A DNA stretch of 64,000 bases from Azolla caroliniana (lineage: Eukaryota; Plantae; Polypodiophyta): the NCBI GenBank assembly GCA_043228905.1, contig JBHGNT010000003.1, forward strand, positions 16,988,001 to 17,052,000, given 5' to 3'. Below are positions 7,401-53,665 of this stretch, one piece after another. Made by a program: the position numbers and the translations under genes. Every line of letters begins with the position of its first letter. Within the stretch, counting starts at the first letter, position 1. Under the pieces are notes generated by a model. It did no database searches and was not told the origin of the DNA. It saw only the letters and a list, made by a program, of their open reading frames with translations.

Positions 7401-8090
7401 TGTTGAAATTCCGTGCTCGGCCACAACCGAGGAATAGGATCAACTCACAGAAAACAGGAAATACAAAATACACGAAGACTATAGAGAGAGGAGTACACAG
7501 GATATTTTACGTGGAAAACCCTAAATGGGAAAAACCACGGGAGTCCTCAAACTCCAACTATCACTATGAACAGGGATGTACAATGGTGAAGCTTCAAGGC
7601 AACAACCTTGAGCTCACTGTCTTCGCCACAGGCGGCGGCAATACACAGAGGCAACGACCTCTTCGTCTCTCTCTCTCTCTCTCGCTCGGCTGCACTCACT
7701 TCGCTCTCTCTGCTGAAAACATAAAATGAGCAACAACAACTACTGTTTGCCCTAAGTCATATTTATACACATATGACTTTCGGGCTATTTACAAATATAG
7801 CCTCAAGGGCTCTTGGCAAACATATTCACAAATATGTCCCCGCATCCGGATCTCTCTCCGGGTACATTCGTCATCCGGCTCCGTCACCGGGGTCTTCATC
7901 ATCCGGCTCCGTAACCGGGGTCTTCAGCATCCGGCTCCGTAACCGGGGTCTTCATCATCCGGATCCGTATCCGGGTACTCTTCATCCAGCTTCATGCCGG
8001 GTACTCTTCATCATCCGGTTCCGTAACTGCAACCGGGCTTGCCGTCATTCATCTCCGGACATCCCATCCGGAGGGACCGAAATCCCAACA
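7401..8090 (-). repeat. 3' LTR of Copia-1 (U3 carries CCGG-rich ~21-25-bp repeats)
   Basis: TG...CA termini, near-identical to 19771-20460. Confidence 0.96.
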
Positions 8091-8100
8091 AACTCCCCCT

Positions 8101-9310
8101 TCACTTCGGCATGGGATGTCTCTCCAACCCGACTCTCTTTCGGCACGCTCCCAGCTTGTCGGGTGTGAGCACTTTGGTCAGCATATCTGACCCGTTCTCT
8201 TCCGTGTGGATCTTCGTCAGCACGAACTCCTGGTCTTCTATCCTTTCCCGGATCCAGTGATATCTTCGCTGGATGTGCTTCGTCCGGGAGTGATAGGCCG
8301 CGTTCTTCGCAAGGTGGATGGCACTCTGACTGTCGCAGTAGAGTCGGTACTCCTCTTGCCGGATACCGAGCTCTCTAATGAAGTCCTTCATCCATATTAT
8401 TTCCTTGCCGGCTTCCACAGCCGCCATGTACTCCGCCTCCGTGGTTGACAGCGCAACCGTCTTCTGCAGCCTCGACTGCCACGAAACGGCTCCCCCTGCA
8501 TACGTCATCACATACCCTGATGTGGACCGGCTGGTATCTGCATCAGCCGACATATCAGAGTCAGTAAAGCCGTCGAGTTCGGGCTTACCGGAGCCGAATC
8601 GGAGGCACACGTTCGCCGTGCCCTTCAGGTATCGGAGTATCCACTTGACCGCGTTCCAGTGCTCTTTGCCGGGATTGCTCATGTACCGGCTCACCACTCC
8701 AACTGCATATCCTATGTCCGGTCTCGTACACACCATGGCGTACATCAAGCTCCCGATGGCTGAGGCATACGGCACTTTCATCATATCCTCCTTTTCAGCC
8801 TTTGTCTTGGGACTTTGCTTGCTGGACAGCTTGCAGTTTGCCGGGAGGGTTGACCCGACCGGTCTTGCTTCCGACATGTTGAACCGTTGAAGCACCTTTG
8901 TCACGTACTTCTCCTGTGACAGCCACAACTGCTTCTTCTTCCGGTCCCGGATGATGTGCATCCCTAGTATTTGTCTCGCCGGACCCAAGTCCTTCATTGA
9001 GAAGGTTCGGTGAAGAGCCTTCTTCAGCATCCGTATCTTGACCTGGTCCCGTCCGACGATCAACATGTCGTCCACGTACAGGAGGAGTATTAGAAAGTCT
9101 CCTCCTTCGAACTTCTTCACAAACACGCAGTGGTCGGACTGCGTTTTGAGGTACCCTTCGTCGGTCATGAAGGAGTCGAACTTCCGGTACCATTGCCGGG
9201 GAGCCTGCTTCAGTCCGTAAAGGCTCTTCTTCAACCGGCATACCAGGTGCTCCTTCCCTTTCTTCTCGAATCCTTCCGGTTGCTGCATGTAGATCTCTTC
9301 TTCGAGGTCA
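8101..9310 (-). CDS. Copia-1 pol C-terminal part (RT YVDD + RNase H)
   Basis: [50 protein letters not shown]. Joins in frame to 16876-19739 after removing the insertion and one TSD copy (1357 aa reconstructed). Confidence 0.93.
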
Positions 9311-9314
9311 CCGT

Positions 9315-9453
9315 TGTCGGGGTAGTTGTGGTTCGTGCGGCGAAGTCGCGGGGACTAAGGTTAAGGGGAGTTGAAGAAACTTAAGTTTAATAAGGCTTGT
9401 ATGGTGATGATAGAATGTTTAAGGATAGTAAGATGAAGAGTTACAAGTAATGT

Positions 9454-9520
<67 letters not shown>

Positions 9521-10292
9521 GAGCATAGATAAAAGATAGAGACAATGTGTGATTCAAGAAAGAAGATTGAGACAAAGTATGATTCTAGAAAGAAGATTGA
9601 GACAAAGTATGATTCAAAGAACAAGAGTATATGATATAAGCATGATGTATATTAAAAATATAATATTTTACCAACTTTACAATCCTTGATCGCAAGATGA
9701 ATCTTCTCAATACCGACCCTTGATTTGAACCCTCGACCTCCACTTTGAAACGAGAGGTTCTCCACCCAACGAGCTAATCTTCTTTACTTGCTTCTATTAT
9801 TTTCTCACTCTCTCTTCTTTGATTCCTTGATTCCCTTTTGTTTTCCTTTCCTCTCTTTTTATAAGTATTTCCATGCATATGGTAATGTCATGCATGTAAT
9901 GCATGAGTTTCATCTTATGCATGATCGCCATTTGGCGCACATGCATTGCATGTGATGCATGATAGCCATCATGCTCATTTGAGCTCCCATGTATTGGGAT
10001 AAGTATAATGATGGATATAACCCTAAAACAAATAACCTAGCTTAGTGGTGTATGGTTTGTGCTTGATATACAAGGTTGAGGGTTCAAGTTCCTCAATTTT
10101 ACTTAATACAATATATAGCTTCATTCTTATATCATGAAGCACATTTATTACACACTTTTACAAATAAATAGCCTAGCCTAGTGGTATGTACATTGTACAT
10201 CGTATATAAGGATGTGGGTTCAAGTCTCTCAAATATTATTAAATACAACATTTAAGCTCATTTTTATATCGTGAAGCACATTCTTCACGACA
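9315..10292 (-). repeat. 3' LTR (978 bp) of the nested Gypsy, with (GT)n(GA)n, 30-bp repeats, CATG cluster and tRNA-like modules
   Basis: Direct repeat of 15894-16875. Confidence 0.95.
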
Positions 10293-13200
10293 CCCACCCC
10301 CTCTGAACTTGCACATTGGTTGTGCAGAGTTCATCCAACACTTCTTCCGATTCTTTTAGTTCTTCTACTTCTTCATAAAATTCAGGCTCTAATGACTCCC
10401 TCCTTTTAAATATTTTAATCCTTTTTCCTGCAATTGGGATACGAATTTCTGTCCCATCTAATTCATTGAGGAAATATGTGGCTTTATCTGTTATTTTCCT
10501 AACTTCATAAGGTCCAAACCATCTTTTTGCAAACTTCCGAATAGTACTGTATTGATTATCTAGGCTATTATCATATACTAATACCCAATCTCCCTCTTGC
10601 ATCTTTCTTGGTCGTATTCTTTTCATCTTGTCAAATCTGTCCTTATTCTTGATTCTTGCCTCTTTCAATCTAGTAGCTGCTTTTTCTATGTCTTCTATCC
10701 TTGATTGAAGTTGTCGTATTCGAACCGCAAGTAAATCTTCCCTACTCATTTCTGATTCCCAAGGCAACACAGCCCATGTAGTTATCTTTTCTTCAATTGG
10801 CATTATTGGCTTCTGTCCTGTGATTAATTCTGCAGGCATATATCCAGTAACAGTGCTGTGAGTTGTCCTATCAGCCCATAGTGCATAGGGTAAGGTTTTT
10901 GGCCAATCACTAACCCGTCCTCTACATGCCTTTGCCAAAGCTTTGACTATTGGCCCATGTCCCCTTTCTACCTTTCCATTAGCTTCTGGATTGTACGCCG
11001 TTGTCAAAGAAAGCCGAATTCCTATTTTGTCGAAAAAATCTTGAGCTTCCGCAGAATTGAGTTCTCCCCTATCTGCCACTATCTTCCCGATACATCCATA
11101 TCTACAAACAATGTCCTCCAAGATGAATTGACATACTCCTAATGTCCCTTTTGTTCTCAATGAACGACCTTCCACTTGATTTGTTAGATCTTCTCTAGCA
11201 AGAACCAAGTATCTCTTTTGTCCTACTCCAAGTGGCATTGTTACCAAATCTATCATCCACTTGTAATGCACCCCCGGTGAGTATGTTGGGTGTAATTCAT
11301 CACAAAATTTTACATTTGAATAATATTGACAAGTGGGACAAGTTTCCACATACTTTTTTATTTGCTCATAGTATCGAGGCCACCAAAATCGTTCTTTAAT
11401 CTTACTGAAAGTGGCCCACACTCCTCGATGACCAGCCCATTCTTTGTCATGCAGCTCTTTGATTATCTCCTTTCTTTGCCCTTCAGAACCTATTACTCTT
11501 TGCGGGTTTCCAGTCTTGGTTTTCGGATGTCGCCATAGATATCCTTCATACAGGAAGAACTTATGGGCTTTCTTGCGAAACTGTGCGAACTCTTTTCTAG
11601 ATCGACCTTTGTACTTGTCAGGGGTTTGTAGGTATTTTCCTATTTCCTTGAATTCATCTTCATACTCCTCTTCTAGAAACTGCATTCCTCCTTCCCGAGT
11701 AATGCTTGTGGTAAGTACTGTTTGTTCTTTGTCCTCATCGTCCGAGTCTGGAATCTCCTCTTCCTCATACCTTGCTCTTGATAACATATCTGCTACTGCA
11801 TTTCTATTCCCAGAGATATGTCGAACTTCAGGGTTGATTGATCTAATATAGATACACCATCTTAACATGGCTTGATCTGGAATATCACAATTAGCTATGA
11901 TACCCAGAATAGGCAAACAATCTGTTTCTATTATTACTTCAGCACCAATTAAGTAATCTCTGTCTATCTTTACAGCTGTTACTATCCCCCATAGCTCTCT
12001 TTTCACCTGTGCATATTTTCTTTGTCGACCACTAAGAACCTTTGCCCCGAATCGGACTGGATACCTTTCTTCCCTATCTTGTTGGCTTATCACCCATCCA
12101 ATTCCAATGGGACTAGAGTCTACTGTGAGATATATGGGCCGGGTGTAGTCTGGTTGCTTCAATGGTGGAGCTTGTGCCAAGTAGTACTTCAATTTCTTCA
12201 TTGCCTCTGAATGCTCTTCACTCCATTCAAATGTCTCTCCTTTTCTTAGGAGTCTATATAAAGGTTCAGATAAATGGGCATAATGCGGAATCCATTTACA
12301 GTAAAAAACACATACCCCCAGAAATCTTCGTACTTCTGAGATGGATGTACATTCCTCTTGCATATTTTGAATTGCATTGACTTTGGTTGGGGATGGCTTT
12401 CTCCCATACGGGCCACACATATGACCAACTATTAATATCTCTTTTGCCCCAAATATTGACTTCGCCCCTGATAAGGTCAAATGCACTTCTTCCATCCTTG
12501 ATAGCACCTTCTCACAATCCTTGATATGATCAGCAACGAATTGACGGCAACCACTTTCGTCCAATTCCTCATTCTTCTCTTCCTCCTTGCATCCCTTAAT
12601 TGGAACATCATCTAGAAAAGGCATTGTAATATGAGGAATAAAATCACGAAGTACCTTGTTCATTCCATTCATCATATGCGCCACTGAGTTGGTCGCTCCT
12701 TGCGGCAAGGTGCACATCCGTACTAACCCTATAGGTGTCTTGATAGAAGTTATATCTCGACTTTTGATAGCAAGTTGAAATTGATCATACCCGGAATAAA
12801 GGTCTCCCATTGAATATATAGCTTTTCCTGCAAACATCTCAGCAAACTCATCCACAATTGGCCCTACTCCCGAGTTTCGGATTGTTACCTTATTCATGGG
12901 TTGCATATCTTGGATAAATCGGAGTCGCCCATCTTTCTTTAACACAGTGAACCATCGACTCGAGTAAGGAGCGTTCGATGGTTCCAAGATACCCATCCTT
13001 ATCTTTTCTTTCAAAAGTTCTAATAGTTGAGGGATTCTAGCCCTAGGCATGGGTATTGGCTTAAAGTTCCATGGAATATGAGGGATAGTGAATATAACCA
13101 TGGGCTCCACAATTTCTGGATCCACACACCCTATTTCTTCCGGTTGGAATGCGAACGCCTTTCCATGCCTTTTTAACATCTCCCTGAACTGCTTTTCTTC

Positions 13201-13749
13201 AGCGGGTAATAGGAAGTCACCCCCTCCTATTTTCATCCCTTGTATTGTTTCCGGAGTAAACACATGTCCTACCTTTCGTGGGTCTCTGATCATTGGCTCT
13301 GTGGCTGCTTCTTTGATTGCCTTTTCACTATCCCCTGGAAGTGGAGCAGCAATAGGACGAACCTTCTTCTCCACTGTCTTGTATTTTGTTAGTACATATG
13401 CTTCATGATCCTTTCGAGCAACTTCTTCAATGACCTCATACATCTTGATTGAATGGACAGGAACTTGGATTTCGTTGTCTTCTTCCATTGCTTCCAAATG
13501 AGTTATTGTATCTTCAAAACTTAATTCTTCAAACATATCCTGAATTTCTTCATCATCATCTATTAATCCAGAACACTTAAAGTACTCGAAAGCATTTTGT
13601 ATTTTATTATTATTTACTTTTAGTATAAAAGTAGCACCATTAGATGAGATTGTACAAGGAATATCTTTATTTACATTATTATTTATGGGGTTTTCTTTTA
13701 TGCTCGGGCTATCACAGCCCCTACCTGTAAAAGCCCTATCTAAAAATCC
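10285..13749 (-). CDS. Gypsy pol (RT, RNase H, integrase). The frame is open upstream of ATG 13536 to the gag stop, so it is probably reached by -1 frameshift
   Basis: DLYSGYDQF, LPQGATNS, PFLDDV, TVDSSPIGIG, integrase H-H-C-C (HDKEWAGH...CPTC) and D-D-E core (IDLV, ADRG, NGKVERG), WFGPYEV. I translated 13537-13749 without a stop. Confidence 0.93.
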   Translation of the reverse strand, partial: GFLDRAFTGRGCDSPSIKENPINNNVNKDIPCTISSNGATFILKVNNNKIQNAFEYFKCSGLIDDDEEIQDMFEELSFEDTITHLEAMEEDNEIQVPVHSIKMYEVIEEVARKDHEAYVLTKYKTVEKKVRPIAAPLPGDSEKAIKEAATEPMIRDPRKVGHVFTPETIQGMKIGGGDFLLPAEEKQFREMLKRHGKAFAFQPEEIGCVDPEIVEPMVIFTIPHIPWNFKPIPMPRARIPQLLELLKEKIRMGILEPSNAPYSSRWFTVLKKDGRLRFIQDMQPMNKVTIRNSGVGPIVDEFAEMFAGKAIYSMGDLYSGYDQFQLAIKSRDITSIKTPIGLVRMCTLPQGATNSVAHMMNGMNKVLRDFIPHITMPFLDDVPIKGCKEEEKNEELDESGCRQFVADHIKDCEKVLSRMEEVHLTLSGAKSIFGAKEILIVGHMCGPYGRKPSPTKVNAIQNMQEECTSISEVRRFLGVCVFYCKWIPHYAHLSEPLYRLLRKGETFEWSEEHSEAMKKLKYYLAQAPPLKQPDYTRPIYLTVDSSPIGIGWVISQQDREERYPVRFGAKVLSGRQRKYAQVKRELWGIVTAVKIDRDYLIGAEVIIETDCLPILGIIANCDIPDQAMLRWCIYIRSINPEVRHISGNRNAVADMLSRARYEEEEIPDSDDEDKEQTVLTTSITREGGMQFLEEEYEDEFKEIGKYLQTPDKYKGRSRKEFAQFRKKAHKFFLYEGYLWRHPKTKTGNPQRVIGSEGQRKEIIKELHDKEWAGHRGVWATFSKIKERFWWPRYYEQIKKYVETCPTCQYYSNVKFCDELHPTYSPGVHYKWMIDLVTMPLGVGQKRYLVLAREDLTNQVEGRSLRTKGTLGVCQFILEDIVCRYGCIGKIVADRGELNSAEAQDFFDKIGIRLSLTTAYNPEANGKVERGHGPIVKALAKACRGRVSDWPKTLPYALWADRTTHSTVTGYMPAELITGQKPIMPIEEKITTWAVLPWESEMSREDLLAVRIRQLQSRIEDIEKAATRLKEARIKNKDRFDKMKRIRPRKMQEGDWVLVYDNSLDNQYSTIRKFAKRWFGPYEVRKITDKATYFLNELDGTEIRIPIAGKRIKIFKRRESLEPEFYEEVEELKESEEVLDELCTTNVQVQRGWVS

Positions 13750-15854
13750 TGGGAAAACTCTTCATCCATCTCTTGAATTGGATGTTCCCTCAAGCATTCT
13801 TTGTTTCTTTCATGGTTGGGCCTCACGGTTAAGAATTGGACAGTCTTTCTTCCATCTTGACTCTTGATTCTCGCGAAAGCCGAACCATCATCAATAACCT
13901 TTGTTTCCATCCTCACTGCGGTGATGTAGGGCTGGCCAAGGATGACGGGGTAGGTTGATCGATCCTGTACAAAGAAATTTTGATTCACCGAGACATCACC
14001 AATTGTTACCTTCACACTAGGACATGCTCCGAATAGATCCTCCGTAGTTTCTGTGGCAGCTCTTATTTTCCACCCATGATTCTTGTCGATCGGCCATCGT
14101 CCTCGAGCGTAAAATTCCGATGACATCATGTTAATCTCTGATCCATGATCGATCAAAGCAATACATGGAATTTGCTGCTCCCCAATTTTTGCAGGTGCCT
14201 CCGTTGTTGCTCGAGCCCAATGGTCCCTTGTATAGTGACTCCTATCCCCTTCATGGACGCCAACATCATTCTGGTTTTTTACACTTGCAGCATTGATGGT
14301 GCTACCATACAAATCTTGGAGTGTTGCTGCACACCCTCCCGTAATTTCCTCCGTCACCTGTCTCTTCCTTCTAATAATATCTATGATAACTTCATGAAAT
14401 TCTTTCTTTGCTATACCCAACACTTCTCTTAAAGTAAATTCTACCTTACTATTTAATATTCTTGTTTCTAGTACCTTTTTTATATCCGTCGTTGTTTCTA
14501 TGTCTGAGGCAAGCTTGAAAGATGGGCCTGTCTTTCCTTTTACTTTATCAGCTTCCTTCGGCTCAATAGCACCCTTTTCCATCTCCCTTCTCTTTTGTTC
14601 TCGTGTCTCATGTCTCTTTGTCGGATCAGCTTCCTCAGCTCTCTTCCGCTTCTCTTCCACTAGCACATCTTGTGCATTCACTTGGGCGAATGCTGATAGC
14701 GCGTCTACTGGATCATTCCATCCAGTGAAGTTTCGTATTTCATCTCCCGCTCTTTTTAATTCATCCACTCGAACCTTCCCTTTTCTTGCATAGTCCATCA
14801 CATCTTGCCAAAAGCCAGATCCACCATATGAGTCTTCTACGCGCAATCCTAAGGTTGCCACGGATTGTATCGCTTGAGTCGTTTCTCTCTCGGCATCTTC
14901 CATTAGCCTTTTCATTCCTCCTCGCCCGAAGTTGAGTTGAAGTGGTTGTCGAGTCTCAGTTGAGTGAATCTTGCCATCTTGATAGTAGATTTTATTATGA
15001 TTAAGAGCATCCCTATGCTCTTGACAATCTTTCTTCTGGTGGTCGATACTATCACACCACATACACCTTCGGACCATTCCACCTCCCTGCCTTGATGAAG
15101 TCGAGCTTTGTCCCGATTCTAGCTTCGTCACTTTGATCGACAAGTCTTTCATGCCTTTCACTAATTCGTGTAAGAGTGATTCTTCTACTTTCTTTTCTCC
15201 CGACTCGTTCCCCGTTTCTTCATCATTTCTGTCGGGCAACTCCATAAACCATAACTTTCTTTTGCAGAAATGGGCGCACGCCCTTTTCACCTCCTCCCAA
15301 TCTTCGGTAAGTCCACTTGGACTATTCTGATCTTCTAAAAGCATTCCCAAGTCCTTCCTGTCTTTAATATTAGTAGCTTGTAGAAACAATATTACTTTAT
15401 CTGGCATTATTATATTTCTATCTCTAACACTTAGTTGCTCAAATCTTTCAGAAAACTCTTTTAATACTTCCAAAACACTTAAATGTTTATTAGACTCTAC
15501 CCAATCCATGAAAGCTCGCCTTGTCATCCTTGACATATCGTTGAGGTTGTATTCATTGAGTAATGCCCTTTCGAATGTTGTCCATGTCTGATTCTCCCTT
15601 TGGAGCTCTTGGATCCTCTCTTGTAGCCCAATCGCAGCGACTCGACTAAAGCTATTAATTTTTGTAGCTTCGTCGACACCGCGTTTAAGCATTTCTTCAT
15701 TATAAATCTTCAGAAATCTTGTTAAATTTATACCTTCGAAGATTCCTACTCGTGCGAGAATATTGTCGACGGCTTTGTCGATGCTTGCCATCATCCCTTG
15801 TTCCCGCATCACTCGTTCCATCATCGTACACATAAGCCTCATTTGCTCCTCCAT
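13740..15854 (-). CDS. Gypsy gag-protease (704 aa)
   Basis: Zinc knuckle CMWCDSIDHQKKDC, retropepsin-like ALIDHGSEIN...VILGQPYI. ATG lies just downstream of the PBS. Confidence 0.9.
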   Translation of the reverse strand: MEEQMRLMCTMMERVMREQGMMASIDKAVDNILARVGIFEGINLTRFLKIYNEEMLKRGVDEATKINSFSRVAAIGLQERIQELQRENQTWTTFERALLNEYNLNDMSRMTRRAFMDWVESNKHLSVLEVLKEFSERFEQLSVRDRNIIMPDKVILFLQATNIKDRKDLGMLLEDQNSPSGLTEDWEEVKRACAHFCKRKLWFMELPDRNDEETGNESGEKKVEESLLHELVKGMKDLSIKVTKLESGQSSTSSRQGGGMVRRCMWCDSIDHQKKDCQEHRDALNHNKIYYQDGKIHSTETRQPLQLNFGRGGMKRLMEDAERETTQAIQSVATLGLRVEDSYGGSGFWQDVMDYARKGKVRVDELKRAGDEIRNFTGWNDPVDALSAFAQVNAQDVLVEEKRKRAEEADPTKRHETREQKRREMEKGAIEPKEADKVKGKTGPSFKLASDIETTTDIKKVLETRILNSKVEFTLREVLGIAKKEFHEVIIDIIRRKRQVTEEITGGCAATLQDLYGSTINAASVKNQNDVGVHEGDRSHYTRDHWARATTEAPAKIGEQQIPCIALIDHGSEINMMSSEFYARGRWPIDKNHGWKIRAATETTEDLFGACPSVKVTIGDVSVNQNFFVQDRSTYPVILGQPYITAVRMETKVIDDGSAFARIKSQDGRKTVQFLTVRPNHERNKECLREHPIQEMDEEFSQDF

Positions 15855-15871
15855 TTCTCCTCGTCGCCGCC

Positions 15872-15889
15872 TTCACGTCGGGTTCACCA
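15872..15889 (-). promoter_or_regulatory. Primer-binding site TGGTGAACCCGACGTGAA (tRNA-Trp)
   Basis: 4 nt from the 5' LTR. Matches the tRNA-Trp 3' end complement as I recall it (cf. ASLV PBS TGGTGACCCCGACGTGAT). Confidence 0.85.
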
Positions 15890-15893
15890 AATG

Positions 15894-16028
15894 TGTCGGG
15901 GTAGTTGTGGTTCGTGCGGCGAAGTCGCGGGGACTAAGGTTAAGGGGAGTTGAAGAAACTTAAGTTTAATAAGGCTTGTATGGTGATGATAGAATGTTTA
16001 AGGATAGTAAGATGAAGAGTTACAAGTA

Positions 16029-16103
<75 letters not shown>

Positions 16104-16875
16104 GAGCATAGATAAAAGATAGAGACAATGTGTGATTCAAGAAAGAAGATTGAGACAAAGTATGATTCTAGAAAGAAGATTGAGACAAAGTATGATTCAA
16201 AGAACAAGAGTATATGATATAAGCATGATGTATATTAAAAATATAATATTTTACCAACTTTACAATCCTTGATCGCAAGATGAATCTTCTCAATACCGAC
16301 CCTTGATTTGAACCCTCGACCTCCACTTTGAAACGAGAGGTTCTCCACCCAACGAGCTAATCTTCTTTACTTGCTTCTATTATTTTCTCACTCTCTCTTC
16401 TTTGATTCCTTGATTCCCTTTTGTTTTCCTTTCCTCTCTTTTTATAAGTATTTCCATGCATATGGTAATGTCATGCATGTAATGCATGAGTTTCATCTTA
16501 TGCATGATCGCCATTTGGCGCACATGCATTGCATGTGATGCATGATAGCCATCATGCTCATTTGAGCTCCCATGTATTGGGATAAGTATAATGATGGATA
16601 TAACCCTAAAACAAATAACCTAGCTTAGTGGTGTATGGTTTGTGCTTGATATACAAGGTTGAGGGTTCAAGTTCCTCAATTTTACTTAATACAATATATA
16701 GCTTCATTCTTATATCATGAAGCACATTTATTACACACTTTTACAAATAAATAGCCTAGCCTAGTGGTATGTACATTGTACATCGTATATAAGGATGTGG
16801 GTTCAAGTCTCTCAAATATTATTAAATACAACATTTAAGCTCATTTTTATATCGTGAAGCACATTCTTCACGACA
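15894..16875 (-). repeat. 5' LTR (982 bp) of the nested Gypsy
   Basis: Direct repeat of 9315-10292, followed by TSD CCGT. Confidence 0.95.
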
Positions 16876-19739
16876 CCGTGAAGGAATGCCATCTTCACGT
16901 CCATCTGTTCTACCTCGAGGTCCATGCTTGCCGCTATGCTCAGCACCGTCCGGATGGAGGTCATCTTCACTACCGGGGCAAATATCTCGTCGAAGTCGAC
17001 GCCCTTCTTCTGCTGAAACCCCTTCACCACGATCCTGGCTTTGTATCTCGGGGGGTTTCCGGCATCTCCCGGTTTCAGCTTGAACACCCACTTGTTTCGA
17101 AGTGCCCGCTTTCCTTTCGGCAACTCCACAAGTTCATATGTGTGGTTCTCGTGCAGGGAATCCATCTCGTCCTGCATGGCACTCAACCACCTGCGGCTCT
17201 GGGTGTCATGTTTTGCTTCTTCAAAGCTCTCCGGCTCCCCCTCGTCAGTTAGCAGCACGTGCTCTGGTTCCGGAAATCTCCGGGGGGCCCTTCTCTCCCT
17301 TAGAGGATATCTTCGTTCCGGAGCTTCGGTAACCGGTTCTTCCGATTCTTCTTCATCCGAATCCATTTCGGGATCGGGGCCGGTTCCGGTATCATTTTCG
17401 TCTTCTTCGGCGGGTTCTGTTTCTTCACCGTCTTCGGCCGGATCCTCGAGTGCTAACCGGTCCCTTGCCGGTCGGGACTGCTCCTCGTAGAGTTGATCCT
17501 CACCGGTCGACTTGGAGCTCTTCATCTTCTTCTCCGACTCCAAGTCGGCGAGTGTCTTGTCCTCCATGAAGATGATGTCTCGACTCCTGAATATCTTCTT
17601 GTCGACCGGGTCCCATACTCGGTAGCCGAACTCGTCGTCGCCGTAACCGAGGAATATGCATGGCCGGGTCTTTGGATCTAGCTTTCCTCTCCGGTCCTTT
17701 GCCACATGCACGTAAGCGAGACACCCGAACACCTTCAGATGCCGGTAGGATACTTCCTTACCGGTCCACACTTTCTGCGGCGTGTCTCCGTCCAAAGGTA
17801 CTGAGGGTGATCTGTTTATCACGTATGTCGCCGTCGACATTGCCTCAGCCCAAAACCCCTTGGGTAATTTCGCATGCGCCAGCATACTCCGGACCCTCTC
17901 CATTATGGTCCGGTTCATCCTCTCGGCCAGCCCGTTCAGTTCCGGTGTCTTCGGCACAGTAAACTCGAGCCGGATTCCCTTCGAGCGACAGTACTCCTGG
18001 AACTGCCCCCGGTATTCCCCTCCGTTATCCGCTCGTATCGCTTTCAGCTTCTTGCCGGATTCTCTTTCCACTCTCGCGTGGAGTTCTTTGAAGACGGACA
18101 ATACTTGGTCCTTTGTCTTCAATGGTGCCGTCCACATCTTCCGGCTGTGATCATCAATGAAAGTCACGAAGTACTGGGCTCCGCCATGTGACTTCGTTTC
18201 TACCTGACACACATCAGTGTGCACCAACTCCAGTGGTGCGCTACGTCTCGTCGGTGGCCTTGAGTGGAAGGAGGTTCGGTTCTGCTTACCGGCCAGGCAA
18301 TCGGTGCACTTCTCCAGGTGCACATGCTTCACTGGAATAAGGTTGTCTTCTGCAAGCCTCTTCATCCCCTTCTCACTCATGTGGCACAGTCTCTTGTGCC
18401 ACAGCTCACCGGCAGTGTCGACTGCCACGTTCAGCTCTTCCGGACATAACCGGGCATTCATCAGGTACAGTGTGTTGACCTTCCGGGCCCGAGCCACTAT
18501 CAGGCTCCCCTTGCTGAACTTCATGACACCGTTCCGGATGCTACCCGTGTAGCCTTCATCATCTAGCCTCCCGGCCGAGATCAGGTTCAATCGGACCTCC
18601 GGAACGTGTCGCACATCCTTCAACAGCATCTTGCATCCGGTTGATGTCATCAGCCACACGTCTCCTATGCCGGCAATCCGGCATGTACCTTCATTTCCCA
18701 TCCGGACACAGCCATGCTCACCGGCTGTGTAGGATGAGAAGTATTTCTTCTCCGGGGTCAGGTGGAACGACGCTCCGGAATCGACCACCCAGGTCATCTC
18801 GTCACCGGCAAGGTTCAGCTCCCTCTCTTCGGTAATGAGCATTATTTCTTCTTCACTTGCCGCGAGTGCCGTCGTTCCTTTCCGGTCCTGCCCTCGCCGA
18901 TCCGGACCTCTCCGGTCCGTGGCTCCCCGGTATGCACCGTTTCTCTCCGGTGACTTCTTCGAGTCGGTGTCGTCGGCTCCGTTGTCCTTTCGGTAATGCC
19001 GACAATTCTTCCGGAAGTGCCCCGGCTTCCCACAGTGGAAGCATGTGGGTCTTCCTCTTGACTGCGACCGGGTCCCCGACTTCTCCCGTCTTTGCGGACT
19101 CCGGTTCCATTGTCTTCCCCGTTCCGATTCGGTAAGCAGTGCCTTCGAGTCGGAGACCGGTTCTTTATCTTTCCGACGCGCTTCCTCATTTAGAATGCTT
19201 GTCTTTACCGTTTGTAGAGACAAGTTATCTTCGGTGCAGGAGGTGCTGAGAGTCACCACCAAGTTCTCCCAGCTATCCGGCAATGTACACATCAGGATGA
19301 TGGCTTGCATTGCATCCTCCAACGGGAACTTGATCGCCGCAAGCTGATTCACGAATCCCATGAACGTGCTTACGTGTTCCACCATACTCTCGCCGTCCCG
19401 GTACTTGAGGTTCACTATCTTTCTCATCAGGGAGGTCCGGTTCAACGCATTCTTCCTCTCGTAGAGGCCCGACAGCTTCCTCCACATCTCATATGCGTTG
19501 GTGTCGTTCGCCACGTGTTGTAGAACACTCACGTCGACGTATTGCCGAATGGTTGCAACGGCTTTCCGGTTCAGAAGCCTCCACTCCGTCTCAAGTACCC
19601 CCTTGGGTATTTCCGACCTGTCGATCGGTTCATACAGGTCCCGAACAATGAGCAGATCCTCCATCTTTATCTTCCAGTCGGCGTAGTTCTGCGCATTCAG
19701 CACCATCATCCCCGGCTGCCCGCTGCTGCCGCCTTCCAT
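16876..19739 (-). CDS. Copia-1 gag-PR-integrase-RT N-part
   Basis: True start MEGGSSGQ at 19739. CFHCGKPGHFRKNC, WVVDSGASFH, LWHKRLCH...CTDC, RADNGGEY, GLAERMNRT, DVKMAFLHG cut at the insertion. Confidence 0.94.
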
Positions 19740-19770
19740 TTTCTGTGTTACCGTCGCTCTGATACCACTT

Positions 19771-20460
19771 TGTTGAAATTCCGTGCTCGGCCACAACCGA
19801 GGAATAGGATCAACTCACAGAAAACAGGAAATACAAAATACACGAAGACTATAGAGAGAGGAGTACACAGGATATTTTACGTGGAAAACCCTAAATGGGA
19901 AAAACCACGGGAGTCCTCAAACTCCAACTATCACTATGAACAGGGATGTACAATGGTGAAGCTTCAAGGCAACAACCTTGAGCTCACTGTCTTCGCCACA
20001 GGCGGCGGCAATACACAGAGGCAACGACCTCTTCGTCTCTCTCTCTCTCTCTCGCTCGGCTGCACTCACTTCGCTCTCTCTGCTGAAAACATAAAATGAG
20101 CAACAACAACTACTGTTTGCCCTAAGTCATATTTATACACATATGACTTTCGGGCTATTTACAAATATAGCCTCAAGGGCTCTTGGCAAACATATTCACA
20201 AATATGTCCCCGCATCCGGATCTCTCTCCGGGTACATTCGTCATCCGGCTCCGTCACCGGGGTCTTCATCATCCGGCTCCGTAACCGGGGTCTTCAGCAT
20301 CCGGCTCCGTAACCGGGGTCTTCATCATCCGGATCCGTATCCGGGTACTCTTCATCCGGCTTCATGCCGGGTACTCTTCATCATCCGGTTCCGTAACTGC
20401 AACCGGGCTTGCCGTCATTCATCTCCGGACATCCCATCCGGAGGGACCGAAATCCCAACA
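19771..20460 (-). repeat. 5' LTR of Copia-1
   Basis: Direct repeat of 7401-8090 with adjacent TGGTATCAGAGC PBS. Confidence 0.96.
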
Positions 20461-23243: not shown

Positions 23244-26200
23244 TGTTGGAGACAAGGCCGTGTCGATGCGGAAGATCAAGAAGCATTCGATTAGGGTTTA
23301 GTACCTGCGTATGACAGTTTCTAAGATCGTGCACAGAGAGAGAGAGAGAGAGAGAGACACACAAAAGACTTTCTATTCAATAGAAACAATAATACAACCA
23401 ACCTTACAAAAAGGTTACAAGGTCACTATATATAGTGACCGACTTAGGGCAACTACCATTTATGCTAATTACACAAATGGCCCAAACTTGATCTATACAA
23501 AGGGATAGTGTGAATACGTCCATTATACACTTGTATTCGACACTCCCCCGTAATGGGCGTATACATGGGTTATCTAAGATTACAGGTATAAACTTAGGTT
23601 CTCGGACATATCAGTTTTGTTCGAGTCGGCAGGGTCCGAAGGCAGAAGACCGAACTGGTCGGGTCGGAAGAGTTGAAGCCGATCATTAAGGAACTGATGT
23701 CAGTTGTCTGAAACCATCCTGCGCTGTGTCCGGCTCTAACCGGACTGGTTTGTCGTTACACCCATCTGATGCCGAAGGGACCGAAAGCGGTCTGCCGAAA
23801 GACACTTGGTCATTCCATCTGCGACATTGTCGGTTGTGGATATTTTCTCCAGACCGATTTTCCCTGAAATGACGCAGTCCCGAACGAAGTGATATCGAAC
23901 GTCGATATGTTTGGAGGCGTTGTGGTGAACCGGATTTCTCGACAAGGCAACAGCACCTTGATTGTCGCTATAGACAACTGGAGCCGAGTCATGGTCGACT
24001 TGTCGAAACGTGTGCGCCAGCCGGCCGAGCCACAAAGCTTCTTTTGCAGCGTCGGACGCAGCTACATATTCTGCTTCGGTTGTTGAGGTCGCTGTGCACT
24101 CCTGAAGTTTCGACTTCCACGAAATTGCTCCATTGCCGAATTTGAAGCAGTATTCGGTTGTTGATTTCCGACTGTCTATACAGCCGGCGAAGTCCGAGTC
24201 GGTGTAACCGACTACGCCTGAGGTTGAGTTCGGACCGAAAAGAATGCCGTGATCTTTTGTGCCAGCCAGATATTTGAACACATGCTTGACTGCGTTCCAA
24301 TGCGATCGGCCAGGATTGTGCATAAATCTGCTAACGACTCCTACGGCATGAGAGATATCAGGCCGTGTCGCGACCATCAGGTACATAAGGGAGCCGACTG
24401 CCGGTGCATACGGTACCGACTTCATATCTCCCCCCTCCGGACCGGATGTCGGGCAGTCTCGTTGAGAGAACCGAAGATTCATGGGGAGCGGGGTTGAAGC
24501 AGATTTGGCTGATTGCATGTTGAAGCGTTCCAAGACACGTCCGATATAGTCGGTCTGAGACAAAAAAAGATGTCGTTTATCGCGATGCCGACTAATCTTC
24601 ATGCCGAGTATGTGTCGTGCCGGACCGAGGTCCTTCATGGCAAACTTCAACCGCAGTTGCCGAATGAGATCGGCAAGTTCGCCCGCGTGGCGTCCAGAAA
24701 TTAGCATGTCGTCCACGTAGATGATGAGGAAGATGGGTGATCCATCTTGAGCTGTGTTGGTAAAAAGACAATGGTCCTCATCGCTTTTTGAGAAGCCGAT
24801 CGATTGGATGAAGTCGTCGAACTTCTTGTACCATTGTCGCGGTGCCTGTTTGAGGCCGTATAGACTCTTCCTGAGTCGGCAGACTAGATGTTCTTGGCCA
24901 GTTTCCACGAAGCCTTTTGGCTGTTCCATATAAATTTCCTCTTCAAGATCACCATGGAGGAAGGCTGTTTTGACATCTAGCTGAATCAGCTCCAAGTTGT
25001 CGGCTGCCACTACGCCGAGTAGAAAACGAAGGGTTGTCATTTTCACCACTGGTGAAAAAATCTCGTCGAAGTCGACGCCATATTCTTGTCGGAAGCCCTT
25101 CGCAACTAATCTGGCCTTGTACTTTGGGGTGGTCGAATCAGACGTCTCTTTTAGGCGATAAACCCACTTGCAAGGAAGAGCACGTCGATTCTTAGGTAGT
25201 TCGACAAGATCCCAAGTCTTGTTTGCCCGAATGGAGTGCATTTCCGACTCCATCGCCAGATGCCAGGTGGCTGAATCGACAGATGTCGATGCTTCTTCGT
25301 AAGACGTCGGTTCGCCGGCGTCGGTGAAGAAAATTCCAGGAGAATACCTCTCCGGAGGTTGCGACAGTCTCTCGGATCGTCGAGGTATGATTGGACTGGT
25401 CGCATCGGGTATCGAGGTCGGATGGTTCGAAAGCGAATCATTCGGCTGTGCCGAGTCAGAGTTGTCCGAGTCGGTAGTGTAAGGTTCAGCTACCCGTGAA
25501 GCTGACCGTGTGTTAAGAGCGGGGCCTTCTTGAAGGGTCGGCACATCGGAAAATGTTACCCTTCGGACTTCGATCGGTTTTTCGACTGATGGATTCATAG
25601 CCGACTCGTTGAACACAACGTCCGAACTTCGAACGATTTGTCTGCGTTCGGGGTCCCAGAGTCGGTATCCCATTTCGCCGTCTGATCCATATCCAAGGAA
25701 AATGCATTTCCTGGACCGAGATGCAAGTTTTCGGCGATCATCTTTCGGAATAAGGGCGTATGCCTCGCATCCGAAGATCCTCAGCTTGTCGTAATTCGGC
25801 TTACTGCCGATCCATAGTTCCTGAGGAATTTGAAGTCCTAGAGGTCTGCTTGGCGACATATTGATTATGTGTACTGCCGTGAGTAGAGCCTCTGCCCAGA
25901 AGCCATCCGACAGTCTGGAGTGTTGGAGCATGGAAACTATCCGTTCTTGGATTGTCCGATTCATGCGTTCTGCAATCCCGTTTTGCTCCGGACTGTGTGG
26001 TGCCGTAAATTCACGTCGGATGCCGCGTTGTCGGCAGAATTTGACGAATTCTTCTGATTTGAACTCTCCCCCATTGTCGGTCTGAAGGCATTTCAGTTTT
26101 CGGTCAGTTTGATTTTCTACCATAGCGAGCCAATCGGAGAAGATCGAGAAGACACGATCTTTGGTGCGAATTGGATAAGCCCACACCTTTCGAGTCGAAT

Positions 26201-28761
26201 CGTCAATAAAACTGACGAAGTAAGAGGCACCGCCGAGAGACTGATGCGGCATTGGGCCACAGACGTCCGAGTGGACTAAATCGAGAGGTCTCGTTTCTCT
26301 TGGTGCTGATGTCGGGTGTGATGCGGCTGCTTGTTTGCCATACTGGCAATGTTCGCAGAATTGATGGTCCGAGAAGGAGAGTTTAGGGATGTATCCGGCT
26401 CTAGATAGGTGCGTAATGCCGGCCTTGCTGAGGTGTCCTAATCTTCTGTGCCATAGTGATGACACAGGAATATCCACCAAAAACAGGTTACCCTCTCTGA
26501 GCGTAACATGTAACGGATACAGTGAGTGTATCTTGGGTCCTCTAGCAAGCAGGAGGTTCCCCCTGTGGAGTGTCCACCCTCCCGAAGAAAAACCGGCACG
26601 AATGCCGTCTTCATCTAGTTGTCCGACTGAGATCAATGGCCTTGAGAGCTCGGGTACATGTCGGACATTGTGAAGTACAAGTGTAGAGCCACCTGCAAGG
26701 TTGAGCTCTACTGTGCCGATTCCAATGATGTCACAGTGTTGCGAGTTGCCGACTCGAACTGAGTCGGAGTGACGGATCGTATATTGCCGAAATTGGGATC
26801 GATGAGGAGTCACGTGAAATGACGCGCCCGAATCTAAGAGCCATGTGCTCGATTCTTCAGTCGTGAGCAGAACTTCTGATCCGACTGGATTTTCGATTGA
26901 TAGTATATTCGGGTCGTTTGGTAGCACATCAGCTGAGAAGCTGACGTAATTGATCTCCTCATGCCGGCCACTCTTCTTGTCTGATTTCTGAGACTTGTCG
27001 TTCTTGTTCTTGAGTGCGCGGCAGTCGGCTTTGATGTGTCCGGGTTTCTTGCAATAGTTGCAGATTCGATTGTCCCGTGACTGGCTCCGTCTTCGTTGAT
27101 TGTTCGGCTGCCGTGAGGAATCTCTTCCTCGTATGTTCGATCGGTCTGTCGAACCTTGTACTACATAAGCGTCGTCTGTTGAGTCTTTGGCGAAAGACTT
27201 CCTCCGAGCTGCTTCGGTCAGGATTGCGCTCGTGACTTCGGAGTATTTAACAGCTGTGGTTGACGCGTTGCACACGGTTGTGACGAAAGTTTCCCATGAT
27301 GAGGGAAGGCTACTCATGAGTATCATTGCTCTGAGTTCATCCTCGATTGCCGTCCCCTGAGATGAGATTTGGGAGCTTATGCTTTCGTACTCATTGAGAT
27401 GTGCTTGAACCGAATCTGATTCTTTCATCCGCAAGTTGTAGAGGCGCCGGATCAGAAACATCTTCGTTGCGGCGACCTTCTTTTCGTAGGTGTCTGACAG
27501 TGTTTTCCACAGTTCGAATGCTGTCGTACACGATTGCACCGTAAAGTATACCGATTCCGATTGGTGCATCCGAATCGTGGCGCGGACGATTCTGTCCAGC
27601 TTCTGCCACTCAATTGGTTTGTATCCTTCTGGAGGTTCTTCATTTTCGATGGGATCGATTTGCCCCTTGACTATGAGATAGTCCTGCATTTGCTCCTTCC
27701 AGAAGTTGAAGTTCGATCCATCGAACTTTCGTAGACTCATTTCTGACGAGCCGGATGTTGATGCCATCAAATTTGGTTTCGGTTGACGAAGCTCGGTTCG
27801 GAGTTGACTACGAACCTTGTTGGAGTGCAGCCGGTTGGCTCACCCGATATCGTTCTAGTCGGATTTGAACCCGAGTCGGTTCGGCTTCGGATATATGTAT
27901 TGTTGAACTTGCTCGAATTGACTCCGGTAACTTGAGGGACAGAACCGACTGGTCTTCCCGAATGTTGCCGAGTCGGAGTGAGCCCGGTTCGCTTCCGAAT
28001 ATATATGCCAAATACCGATTATTGAAACCGATTGTCTGGACCGATTCTGCTTCGGGTGACTGCAGGGACGAGAGAGACGGATCCAACTGATCCTCCTGAA
28101 TGTCGATCAGTCGGATGAAGCACGAATTGGGGTTGTTGTCTTGAAACCGATCTGCACCGAGTGGTTACAATGAGCGGCGAGCAGCGTTTGATGACCTCTT
28201 CGGATGCCGTTTAACCGAGTGGAGCACGATCGTGTCAATGTTGCATAAGGGGATTTCACCTCGAGCGGTTACGATCACAAGGAACAGAGTACAACCTGCT
28301 GGCTTACTCCAAGCGAAGGTGACCTAACGCGATGAGATGCAAGCCTCGTTTTTCTTCTTCTTCTCTCTTCTTCGAATGACGCAAGAAACCGAATGCTGTG
28401 CAGGCTGAGACGACGGCCGACAGCGGGATGAGGGACCGAATACTGTGCAGGCTCTGATACCAGATGTTGGAGACAAGGCCGTGTCGATGCGGAAGATCAA
28501 GAAGCATTCGATTAGGGTTTAGTACCTGCGTATGACAGTTTCTAAGATTGTGCACAGAGAGAGAGAGAGAGAGAGACACACAAAAGACTTTCTATTCAAT
28601 AGAAACAATAATACAACCAACCTTACAAAAAGGTTACAAGGTCACTATATATAGTGACCGACTTAGGGCAACTACCATTTATGCTAATTACACAAATGGC
28701 CCAAACTTGATCTATACAAAGGGATAGTGTGAATACGTCCATTATACACTTGTATTCGACA
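23244..28761 (-). mobile_element. Full-length Ty1/Copia LTR retrotransposon (Copia-2)
   Basis: LTRs 23244-23542 and 28465-28761 (one substitution plus one GA unit difference). TSD GCAAG (23239-23243/28762-28766). tRNA-iMet PBS 28451-28462. PPT next to 23543. Confidence 0.97.
23736..27770 (-). CDS. Copia-2 intact gag-pol polyprotein (1344 aa)
   Basis: CNYCKKPGHIKADC, WLLDSGASFH, TDNGGEF, IIYVDDML, YTDSD, HIDVRYHFVRD in one uninterrupted frame. Confidence 0.96.
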   Translation of the reverse strand: MMASTSGSSEMSLRKFDGSNFNFWKEQMQDYLIVKGQIDPIENEEPPEGYKPIEWQKLDRIVRATIRMHQSESVYFTVQSCTTAFELWKTLSDTYEKKVAATKMFLIRRLYNLRMKESDSVQAHLNEYESISSQISSQGTAIEDELRAMILMSSLPSSWETFVTTVCNASTTAVKYSEVTSAILTEAARRKSFAKDSTDDAYVVQGSTDRSNIRGRDSSRQPNNQRRRSQSRDNRICNYCKKPGHIKADCRALKNKNDKSQKSDKKSGRHEEINYVSFSADVLPNDPNILSIENPVGSEVLLTTEESSTWLLDSGASFHVTPHRSQFRQYTIRHSDSVRVGNSQHCDIIGIGTVELNLAGGSTLVLHNVRHVPELSRPLISVGQLDEDGIRAGFSSGGWTLHRGNLLLARGPKIHSLYPLHVTLREGNLFLVDIPVSSLWHRRLGHLSKAGITHLSRAGYIPKLSFSDHQFCEHCQYGKQAAASHPTSAPRETRPLDLVHSDVCGPMPHQSLGGASYFVSFIDDSTRKVWAYPIRTKDRVFSIFSDWLAMVENQTDRKLKCLQTDNGGEFKSEEFVKFCRQRGIRREFTAPHSPEQNGIAERMNRTIQERIVSMLQHSRLSDGFWAEALLTAVHIINMSPSRPLGLQIPQELWIGSKPNYDKLRIFGCEAYALIPKDDRRKLASRSRKCIFLGYGSDGEMGYRLWDPERRQIVRSSDVVFNESAMNPSVEKPIEVRRVTFSDVPTLQEGPALNTRSASRVAEPYTTDSDNSDSAQPNDSLSNHPTSIPDATSPIIPRRSERLSQPPERYSPGIFFTDAGEPTSYEEASTSVDSATWHLAMESEMHSIRANKTWDLVELPKNRRALPCKWVYRLKETSDSTTPKYKARLVAKGFRQEYGVDFDEIFSPVVKMTTLRFLLGVVAADNLELIQLDVKTAFLHGDLEEEIYMEQPKGFVETGQEHLVCRLRKSLYGLKQAPRQWYKKFDDFIQSIGFSKSDEDHCLFTNTAQDGSPIFLIIYVDDMLISGRHAGELADLIRQLRLKFAMKDLGPARHILGMKISRHRDKRHLFLSQTDYIGRVLERFNMQSAKSASTPLPMNLRFSQRDCPTSGPEGGDMKSVPYAPAVGSLMYLMVATRPDISHAVGVVSRFMHNPGRSHWNAVKHVFKYLAGTKDHGILFGPNSTSGVVGYTDSDFAGCIDSRKSTTEYCFKFGNGAISWKSKLQECTATSTTEAEYVAASDAAKEALWLGRLAHTFRQVDHDSAPVVYSDNQGAVALSRNPVHHNASKHIDVRYHFVRDCVISGKIGLEKISTTDNVADGMTKCLSADRFRSLRHQMGVTTNQSG

Positions 28762-40700: not shown

Positions 40701-41700
40701 TCGTTATATTAAATAGCCACAAATGATGTGATCGAGATACGTAATCGAGGTATATACCTCTATGCACACGAAACATCCACAAATAAGAGATCATCGTAAT
40801 ACGCAATTGAGGTATTGACCTCTTACGCATACGAGACCAAACGCATATCCTTTACAACAAATCAACGTATTAAACTCATACGCAAATGTAACATATGTTC
40901 GTGAACGTAATACGTAATTGAGGTATTAACCTCGTACGCATACGACACTCATCACATATTATTTATATATCAAACGAGGTATTGACCTCGTGCACATATG
41001 TAAACGTTTTAGATAATCAATAAAAGACCACTACAATATCATTGACTTAATGAAAAAATGACATATAAACTAAACACATGATTAGATGGGAGAAGAGAGA
41101 ATAGAAAAAAAAATTACGGAAAGAGTTACCGAAGTTCTTTGTTGATCGTTGTCTGGATCAAGGCCGACCTCACATCGATCGATCACCATCAATCAAAAGA
41201 CAAAAGACAAACAAAGAAACATTAGTACATAGCTCTGATACCAAATATTAGAGATCTAGGTACTAAAGTAAGCTTAAGATAAGGATAAACTAATGATAGA
41301 TAGAAAGGAGAAAGAGAAAGAAGGGTGTCGATCCACCCGACCACCCCCGAGCGAAGGGATCGAGACGGACTCGAGCCTCGATCGGCGTCCCATACCACCG
41401 TCGTGGCGTCGAGTCGTACCTGGTGGTGGCGCGCTCGCTACAAGAGTTGACCCACCACAAGAGCAGAGTCTCGATGTAGTCAAAAGATGATCAAATGAGG
41501 GTAGCTAGGCCTCTTATTTATAGCGATACCCAAGGCCCCCAGGCAAGTTCACACTTGACCTAATGGGTTGTCTCAATCCCGAGGATTAAAAGTAATCCTC
41601 CCCTTCTTTACACTGTCGTTTAACCCTCACACTTATCCACGTGTATAGAATACTACGATAAATTCTCACCACGGGATATTAAATGGTCATGCCCGTAACA
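34702..41700 (-). mobile_element. Chromovirus (Ty3/Gypsy with chromodomain), decayed
   Basis: 455-bp LTRs 34702-35156 and 41246-41700. TSD GTGGC. tRNA-iMet PBS 41232-41243. PPT AAGAAGGGGAG. Gag 39555.., [31 protein letters not shown]-type HPQSDGQTER, chromodomain PKRILDVK...KIKW...ATWE. Confidence 0.94.
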
Positions 41701-43040: not shown

Positions 43041-43758
43041 TGTCGTAGTGTATTTCATACACTACGTGAAAAATGTGTAAAATAACCGATTGAATAAATA
43101 TGAAGAAAAAGAAAGAAACATTGAAATATATGTTACATGCATAGGGCAAGATTCAAACCTTGTACCTCCATGTTAATAATTTGACATCTTACCATTACAC
43201 TAACACATCATGAGTATTAAAAAAGCAGATATCCCACATAGAAAGCTTATTTCAGGCATATTTTGTAGGAAAAAACTTTAGTTAGAAGAAAAAACCATGA
43301 TAAAAAAAGCCACATATACACATTTAACGTGCATGAACACTATAGTCGATAAAAACGCATGAGGTTAGAAAAAAAAGCATGATCACTTTTAGAAAAAGCA
43401 TGTTAGAGAAAGCATATAGTCTATAGATAGAGAAAAAGCATGGATTGCTAAGACTCTCTCATCACTATATAAGGATGTGGAGCACAATGTAATAAAGAAA
43501 TAAAATAAAATAAAATAATTATGGGCTGATTATTAGGGTCTAAATATTGATTAATATAATACTCGTGGGATTCACGAGGTTTTCAATTTCTCTTTTCAAA
43601 TCTATTCCTATTGATTCCAATCGAATCCAAAGTATGATTAGGGTTAAATATTAATAAAACTAAAAAAACTATATTCGTCTCAAATTCTTCCTCCTAGCCC
43701 AAAACCCCAACGGTTCCCACCCGACTCACGCAATGATTTGGCACCGAAAGGCACGACA
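43041..43758 (+). mobile_element. Solo LTR (718 bp), probably from the same Gypsy lineage as 9315-16875
   Basis: TGTCGT...ACGACA termini, 4-bp TSD ACAT/ACGT, and removal restores SRHTWIYL. Same layout as the Gypsy LTR: antisense tRNA-like module, GCATG cluster, TATA. Confidence 0.85.
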
Positions 43759-49700: not shown

Positions 49701-49706
49701 TGGAAT

Positions 49707-53612: not shown

Positions 53613-53665
<53 letters not shown>

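Follow-up and report, generated by a model that had tools for sequence, protein, structure and literature searches.

Introduction

Pol III promoters (promoters of RNA polymerase III) of small-RNA genes have been described within several retroelements' long terminal repeats (LTRs). Here we compare these systems with a Ty3/gypsy (Gypsy) LTR retrotransposon of Azolla caroliniana whose LTRs contain tRNA-like modules with A and B boxes. The element lies in a stretch of 64,000 nucleotides (contig JBHGNT010000003.1, positions 16,988,001 to 17,052,000 of the forward strand), which we refer to as the window and whose own numbering is used throughout.

The closest described elements are the Helenus TRIMs (terminal-repeat retrotransposons in miniature) (TRIMp3; Kojima 2024, PMC10886601). 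As in the Azolla elements, their LTRs hold tRNA-derived sequence with conserved box A and box B that is unlikely to work as a tRNA and shows no complementarity to the primer-binding site (PBS). Helenus elements are non-autonomous and at most 1263 bp long, and it was proposed that Pol III transcribes them from these boxes (PMC10886601); the elements described here, in contrast, are autonomous (5-7.5 kb, with both coding frames open in the focal element), have a TATA box, and carry their main modules backward. According to the same paper, tRNA-like pieces occur in 'not a few LTRs' of Repbase; it analyses TRIMs only and argues that autonomous partners must use RNA polymerase II (Pol II). Cassandra and Ajax TRIMs likewise have a small-RNA-gene Pol III promoter within the LTR, but these are 5S-derived and non-autonomous, and it is the 5S promoter that gives rise to Cassandra RNA (PMC10886601).

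Three further systems share single aspects of the arrangement. The Pol III microRNA cassettes of foamy-virus LTRs place A and B boxes in the LTR of an autonomous retroelement with a Pol II promoter; they yield a hairpin RNA that has its own terminator (PMC3993851), whereas structure and terminators vary across the families studied here. The U2 small nuclear RNA (snRNA) elements of trypanosomatids are tRNA-like A/B modules without tRNA function that face away from a neighbouring promoter at a constrained distance (PMC4950102). The gene they drive is a Pol III snRNA gene, and the distance is near-fixed at 104 bp, in contrast to a predicted Pol II promoter at 114-278 bp in the present case. The tDNA and extra-TFIIIC (ETC) boundaries of yeast offer a proposed likeness, in that B-box sites act via bound transcription factor IIIC (TFIIIC) and not via an RNA, but they are experimentally tested host chromosomal sites and are not LTR-borne (PMC4228148). 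The arrangement of backward modules in autonomous Gypsy LTRs is undescribed in the open-access literature searched, including the available parts of PMC7466625, PMC2864245, PMC5391098 and PMC13578239; Repbase entries and the supplements of PMC10886601 and PMC6317226 may list such LTRs.

Results

Three A/B-box modules flank the predicted LTR promoter

The focal element is an intact Gypsy LTR retrotransposon of 7,561 bp on the minus strand, classified below. Its LTRs each contain three tRNA-like modules (m1, m2 and m3), which by their sequence would qualify as type 2 Pol III promoters, with an A box and a B box at tRNA spacing.

10038..10094, plus strand: module 1 of the 3' LTR, antisense to the element, in U3 (the unique 3' region); A box TAGCTTAGTGG at 10038-10048
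10081-10090, plus strand: B box of module 1, with GGTTCAAGT at 10081-10089
10174..10230, plus strand: module 2 of the 3' LTR, antisense, in U3; A box at 10174-10184, B box at 10217-10226
9718..9776, minus strand: module 3 of the 3' LTR, sense; A box (weaker) from 9776, B box at 9731-9722
16621..16677, plus strand: module 1 of the 5' LTR
16757..16813, plus strand: module 2 of the 5' LTR
16301..16359, minus strand: module 3 of the 5' LTR
9855..9863, minus strand: TATA box of the LTR Pol II promoter, TATAAAAAG, predicted from sequence
9870..10000: CATG cluster with 10 CATG, 8 CATGCA/TGCATG

A first-pass annotation of this DNA had described three modules in both LTRs, and they are indeed present at both sets of coordinates. 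They span tRNA positions 8-65 only. The number of consensus positions matched (A box plus GWTCRANNC B box) is 17/17 in m2, 16/17 in m1 and 15/17 in m3. The distance between T8 and G53 is 44 nt in m1 and m2 and 46 nt in m3; the annotated interval of 43 nt from A box start to B box start in m1 and m2 was reproduced. m2 belongs to the second copy of a 136-bp unit, the two copies of which are 77% identical, in line with the diverged tandem duplication of ~136 bp proposed earlier. Between m1 and m2, 16/17 box sites are identical, as opposed to 26/40 of the remaining sites. The anticodon-like and T arms of the plus-strand modules pair as claimed (5/5 and 5/5 in m1, 5/5 and 4/5 in m2), and in m3 the corresponding values are 3/5 and 1/5. 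A strict scorer found one match in 1 of 5000 dinucleotide shuffles of the LTR and two in 0 of 5000; with a looser scorer, 3000 shuffles yielded at least one match in 117 cases, two in 2 and three in 0. The set of three modules thus far exceeds what chance would give.

m1 sits 174 bp and m2 310 bp from the predicted TATA box at 9863-9855, and the CATG cluster, presumably a set of Pol II factor sites of the RY type, is positioned between these two modules and the TATA box; m3 lies ~88 bp downstream of it. A T4 run (10097-10100) follows m1, which has CAA just upstream, and the first T run after m3 is at 9658-9654. The modules were thus confirmed to flank the CATG cluster and TATA region and to face away from it. 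What the first-pass annotation had left unsaid is that the element runs on the minus strand; relative to it, the two U3 modules m1 and m2 are antisense, and m3, downstream of the TATA box, is sense.

The modules are neither tRNA genes nor recent SINE insertions

In agreement with the earlier description, an acceptor stem is absent (3-4/7 pairs only). ARAGORN called 0 tRNAs in the modules, and the Rfam model RF00005 gave m1 15.4 bits, below its cut-off of 29; the modules were therefore rejected as tRNA genes. Alignment to 20 host anticodon classes gave no clear winner as the parent tRNA, with Pro and Gln as candidates only. A role as self-made primer was likewise rejected: the longest match between a module and the PBS is 7 nt and represents the generic B-box word.

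A family-specific pattern has 559 exact matches in the genome, of which 30 were examined. All 30 lie in LTR sequence, 29 in the focal family and one (L075) in another Phygy-like family, and no free-standing module copy outside LTRs was found among them. No body of a short interspersed element (SINE), A-rich tail or target-site duplication (TSD) was detected around the modules, the only flanking repeat of m2 being the tandem unit. Since 77/81 family LTRs sampled blind to the boxes (see below) retain a U3 module, we rejected recent SINE insertion; the few-copy SINE insertions that the first-pass annotation had named as its own counter-case give way to modules fixed in a high-copy LTR family.

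Separately, the genome contains a probable tRNA-headed SINE family (L336 and L341, at the centre of each locus, and L396), with an A/B head, a ~330-nt body and an A-rich end in the two copies compared (L336/L341). Host tRNA genes occur in large single-type clusters (Lys at G000:C5:17987927-17993943), and Trp and Pro motif clusters are found on C16 near 4.99-5.11 Mb, C8 near 17.80-17.82 Mb and C12 near 5.12 Mb. Many of the host tRNA genes sampled have no T4 run close downstream.

Retention and conservation within the focal family

To sample family LTRs blind to the boxes, we used 90 of the 179 3' LTRs found via the junction with the polypurine tract (PPT) alone; nine were excluded as belonging to a sister family or another LTR. 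In the remaining 81, a U3 module was found in 77 and a pair of them in 49; the sense module occurs in 72. These LTRs are ~67-96% identical to that of the window, and the internal sequence, where retained, is mostly >90% identical.

Conservation was measured on a tree of 50 two-unit LTRs, with truncated, nested, end-less and one-unit copies dropped. Parsimony assigned 24 internal-branch changes to the box sites compared with 42.7 expected from base-matched LTR sites (p 0.016), so that the boxes are better conserved than other LTR sequence, though modestly, on a comparison that the first-pass annotation had itself put forward. B boxes alone gave p 0.018, and U3 boxes compared with local U3 gave p 0.027. 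At the purine positions of the B box, every change is an A/G swap that preserves the consensus. Pairing of the anticodon hairpin reaches 91% across 82 haplotypes, with one double change, T-A to C-G, in 13 haplotypes; the T stem of m1 averages 4.8 of 5 pairs, and no T stem covariation was found in the family.

L080/L228, L226, L274 and similar loci are likely non-autonomous derivatives of the focal family, many with a single U3 module. The sequence upstream of their PPT is unlike pol, and in L080 gag joins the PPT.

Modules recur in other Phygy-like families

Relatives were collected by an integrase motif search (1,379 matches) together with 80 metagenome loci, some of which are nearly identical to families of this genome. 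From a 45-row integrase tree we counted the 16 ingroup branches with readable LTRs, after removal of L188 (a module in a Tcn1-type LTR within a Phygy integrase) and L156/L157 (a nested focal-type LTR). An antisense U3 module scoring 14-17 of 17 is present in 8/16 branches, with pol ~58-70% identical. Among the remaining branches, one has a sense module upstream of TATA and one only weak sense modules downstream. In L153/L204 the layout of two antisense modules plus one sense module is repeated with unrelated sequence.

The sister family L098, L143 (70-81% protein identity) has no U3 module and 2-3 weak sense modules downstream of TATA. The last 60 bp of the LTRs of L161, L092, L093 and L100 share a motif resembling GTTCRAGACCCC.GTGGTCC, which holds a B-box-like word and no A box.

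A second carrier lineage fits a Tcn1-type chromovirus

A general A/B pattern matched the 523-Mb host genome 5,090 times, and the reversed control pattern 0 times. The first 30 loci comprised 14 Phygy-type LTRs, 12 chromovirus LTRs, 2 tRNA-Arg genes and 2 probable tRNA-headed SINEs; Gypsy LTRs hence account for 26/30. The chromovirus has LTRs of 430-450 bp, a chromodomain (Chromo match) and a pol 23-27% identical to the focal pol. Its PBS is complementary to its own LTR and not to a tRNA, and in L391 matches the stretch directly after the TATA box. A self-LTR-complementary PBS is a feature of Tcn1 (PMC6317226), and by such features, as opposed to a reference tree, the lineage fits a Tcn1-type chromovirus.

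We then examined 30 Tcn1-type loci chosen by the chromodomain motif alone (2,906 motif matches). An antisense module near the LTR start was found in 26/30 (two of the 26 being the same LTR), compared with 0.5% per shuffled locus. Three of the four misses have deletions or insertions at the place of the module, and one belongs to a distant lineage. The families span ~58-98% protein identity. A TTCTAGAA cluster, which we take to resemble heat-shock elements, lies between module and TATA box (L391, L392, L395, L403-L431). In the main Tcn1 family the distance from module to TATA is fixed at 114 bp. In Tcn1 LTRs the module ends ~10 nt from the LTR end, without a terminator of its own inside the LTR.

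A Tcn1-type LTR with a Phygy-like CATG cluster lies at L397:1945-2663, and after it come its PBS and an inverted piece of LTR; an interpretation of this locus as a miniature inverted-repeat transposable element was accordingly rejected. L397 and the focal LTR share an 18-mer of the CATG cluster, and such sharing between a Phygy-like and a Tcn1-type LTR indicates that U3 pieces may move between lineages. The two lineages may have gained the module independently or may have exchanged U3 pieces.

In a control set of Met-primed, mostly Copia elements, 1/30 loci had a 15/17 match in the 1.5 kb upstream, with ~3 expected by chance. The four other LTR elements of the window (34702-41700, 23244-28761, 47048-54609 and 7401-20460), which comprise one Met-primed chromovirus with stops, two Copia elements and one unclassified element, have no module. 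A lone 17/17 A/B module occurs in the window at 56987-57043 (minus strand), in AT-rich DNA amid reverse transcriptase (RT) fragments.

Boxes, spacing and distance to TATA are kept across families

A set of 35 modules from both lineages was compared; it includes L188 and three doubtful rows, and omission of the three doubtful rows leaves the anticodon mean at 2.94. Kept across the set are the boxes, their spacing of 43-46 nt, and AGGT of positions 44-47 (32/35 at each position). The anticodon stem is at shuffle level (2.94 vs 2.97 of 5 pairs), the acceptor stem averages 2.6 of 7 pairs compared with 6.6 in host tRNAs, and the CAA start motif shows no enrichment (14% vs 19%). An AT-rich, TATA-like word is located 18-40 nt upstream of 66% of the modules, 17% of random LTR sites and 50% of host tRNAs. 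Only 16% of the sampled host tRNAs have a T4 run within 40 nt, so the comparison of terminators is uninformative. Between families, module interior and flanks turn over completely, while boxes and spacing remain near-perfect.

The distance from module to predicted TATA box is 147-278 bp in 19 Phygy rows (standard deviation 41), 9 of which come from one family, and the distance to the LTR end is 141-630 bp (standard deviation 133). Over both lineages (25 rows), the modules lie 114-278 bp from TATA, with a median of 174, and 64-630 bp from the LTR end; the former distance is held far more constant than the latter.

The focal element and its surroundings

The element that carries the modules has inserted recently; its two LTRs differ only by a 4-nt indel within a TG repeat.

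9315..10292, minus strand: 3' LTR of the Phygy-like Gypsy element, 978 bp, TG...CA
15894..16875, minus strand: 5' LTR of the element, 982 bp
9311..9314: target-site duplication CCGT, with its second copy at 16876-16879
10293..10304, minus strand: polypurine tract
15872..15889, minus strand: primer-binding site, complementary to the 3' end of host tRNA-Trp(CCA)
13740..15872, minus strand: open gag-side frame, 710 aa stop to stop, with DUF4100
10285..13761, minus strand: open pol frame, 1158 aa, with RT, RNase H and integrase
7401..20460, minus strand: Copia element hosting the insertion, its RT gene split by the focal element; LTRs without module
43041..43758, plus strand: solo LTR from a different Phygy-like family, embedded in Copia sequence; it bears an antisense module itself (A box on the minus strand, from 43202)

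A Pfam scan of the focal pol returned the order RT-RNase H-integrase and no match to a chromodomain. The coding frames (10285-15872) fill nearly the whole internal region of this short element, and the TSD CCGT agrees with the NCGN target preference of Phygy. Compact coding, an NCGN target and a non-Met tRNA primer are the traits given for Phygy (PMC6317226). The element matches this description in all three respects; placed by described features and not by a reference tree, it is called Phygy-like and fits a Phygy-like non-chromovirus Ty3/gypsy element. Its named relatives are Riccia proteins, with identity up to 64%. A second copy at G000:C11:5257057-5264236 has an LTR stretch that is 100% identical to that of the window over ~600 bp, a sign of very recent activity.

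Discussion

Retention in the focal family, the relative conservation of the boxes and their recurrence in distant families together support selection on TFIIIC-type boxes. As far as can be judged from sequence, the pattern would be explained more readily by a protein-binding site tied to the Pol II promoter than by an RNA gene or a signal for integration. Our preferred reading, to which we give about an even chance, is that TFIIIC docks at the modules and thereby insulates or opens the Pol II promoter of the LTR. The A/B boxes on both sides of this promoter would likely bind host TFIIIC (and TFIIIB), and the bound complex would act as a chromatin device that holds the enhancer-TATA region open and shields the promoter region from silencing and from read-through out of flanking DNA. 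The modules might phase nucleosomes or act as barriers and so help the element to be transcribed. As the U3 modules point outward, TFIIIB would be seated on their promoter side, beside the cluster of CATG (Phygy) or TTCTAGAA (Tcn1). Pol III may also produce short transcripts as a by-product, and the modules probably originated from a tRNA or the head of a tRNA-derived SINE. In yeast, TFIIIC sites serve as barriers, insulators, nucleosome-phasing sites and Pol II roadblocks (PMC4228148). The first-pass annotation had suggested either TFIIIC barriers or Pol III transcripts; our results support this in part, in that they favour selection on TFIIIC-type boxes, which may act as barriers, and the latter, as an RNA product, is weakened by the variation of stems, CAA and terminators across families.

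Several observations weigh against docking sites of this kind. Box conservation inside the family, by the parsimony test alone, is modest: the A boxes taken separately do not reach significance (p 0.20), and conservation over the terminal 50 bp of the LTR is on a par with that of the boxes (0.30 vs 0.32 changes per site). Terminal-branch changes at the boxes are low too (39 vs 68), so the boxes may have a lower mutability. m3 carries G at the invariant A14 and m1 carries T at C61. The module is absent from 6/16 Phygy-like branches, some of them abundant, which makes it dispensable, and in the branch L162/L163/L167 the module upstream of TATA points in the sense direction. The TATA positions are predicted, and the rows from which the distances were taken are non-independent. 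Finally, Pol III complexes, once assembled, can also have a repressive effect on Pol II promoters nearby (PMC4228148).

Were the modules Pol III genes whose short RNAs (~70-130 nt) are selected as decoys, small-RNA precursors or antisense regulators, the focal family would supply the better part of the case, with its largely paired anticodon hairpin and one double change, the nearly complete T stem of m1, CAA just upstream and T4 just downstream. However, haplotype relatedness inflates the shuffle test of the anticodon arm, most changes in that arm are G-T tolerant transitions, and the T stem lacks covariation. Across families the stems are at shuffle level and CAA is unenriched, and inside the LTR the Tcn1 modules lack a terminator. 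As none of these features is conserved across families, a functional Pol III RNA loses support, and we regard it as unlikely. Cassandra-like synthesis of the genomic RNA by Pol III is disfavoured by the antisense orientation of m1 and m2 and by 23 T4+ runs after m3. The modules could instead be neutral remnants of tRNA or SINE heads that ancestral LTRs once captured and that have since been passed on as the LTRs were copied. Such an origin would agree with the patchy presence of the module in the Phygy-like tree, the modest conservation within the family, the probable tRNA-headed SINE family of the genome (L336/L341) and the 18-mer that suggests movement of U3 pieces between lineages. It has to contend with boxes and a 44-45 nt spacing that stay near-perfect despite complete turnover of interior and flanks, with an orientation and TATA distance kept in two lineages, and with the lack of any SINE body, tail or TSD around the modules; its probability is accordingly low in our estimate.

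Two further explanations keep the modules tied to the promoter. In Leishmania, the U2 snRNA gene needs divergent tRNA-like A/B boxes with the A box 104 bp away (PMC4950102), and a comparable upstream element, in which TFIIIC positions TFIIIB and TATA-binding protein (TBP) to start directly at the LTR start site, could account for the fixed 114 bp of the main Tcn1 family. The range of 114-278 bp between families, the LTR's own TATA box and factor-site cluster, and 23 T4+ runs along the 7.5-kb sense strand, 5 being T5+, which would be impassable for Pol III, make this decidedly improbable. The geometry would fit equally well if the modules dampened the LTR promoter by tRNA-gene-mediated silencing, or blocked outward transcription, and thereby lowered the cost to the host; yeast tDNAs show both such repression and the blocking of bidirectional transcription (PMC4228148). 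The module-bearing families are, however, young and abundant, with identical LTRs and the many Tcn1-type chromodomain motif matches given above, which gives little sign of repression, and we attach little probability to this explanation.

How LTR retrotransposons stay active within heterochromatin is an open question, and the known answers are mostly proteins or stress-responsive motifs. If TFIIIC docking at the LTR promoter is correct, a cis-acting TFIIIC boundary borne by the LTR would be a different route to the same end, for which sister families with and without the module provide a natural comparison. Module LTRs outnumber tRNA genes by 26 to 2 among the 30 loci sampled; the modules could therefore compete for TFIIIC, and they may inflate tRNA and SINE counts in such genomes. 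More broadly, we propose, tentatively and as a possibility short of probable, that two distant autonomous Gypsy lineages each equipped their LTRs with TFIIIC-recruiting tRNA boxes, which would serve as a boundary against silencing that moves with the element, and that they may thereby have spread thousands of additional TFIIIC sites that would shape the chromatin of this non-seed plant.
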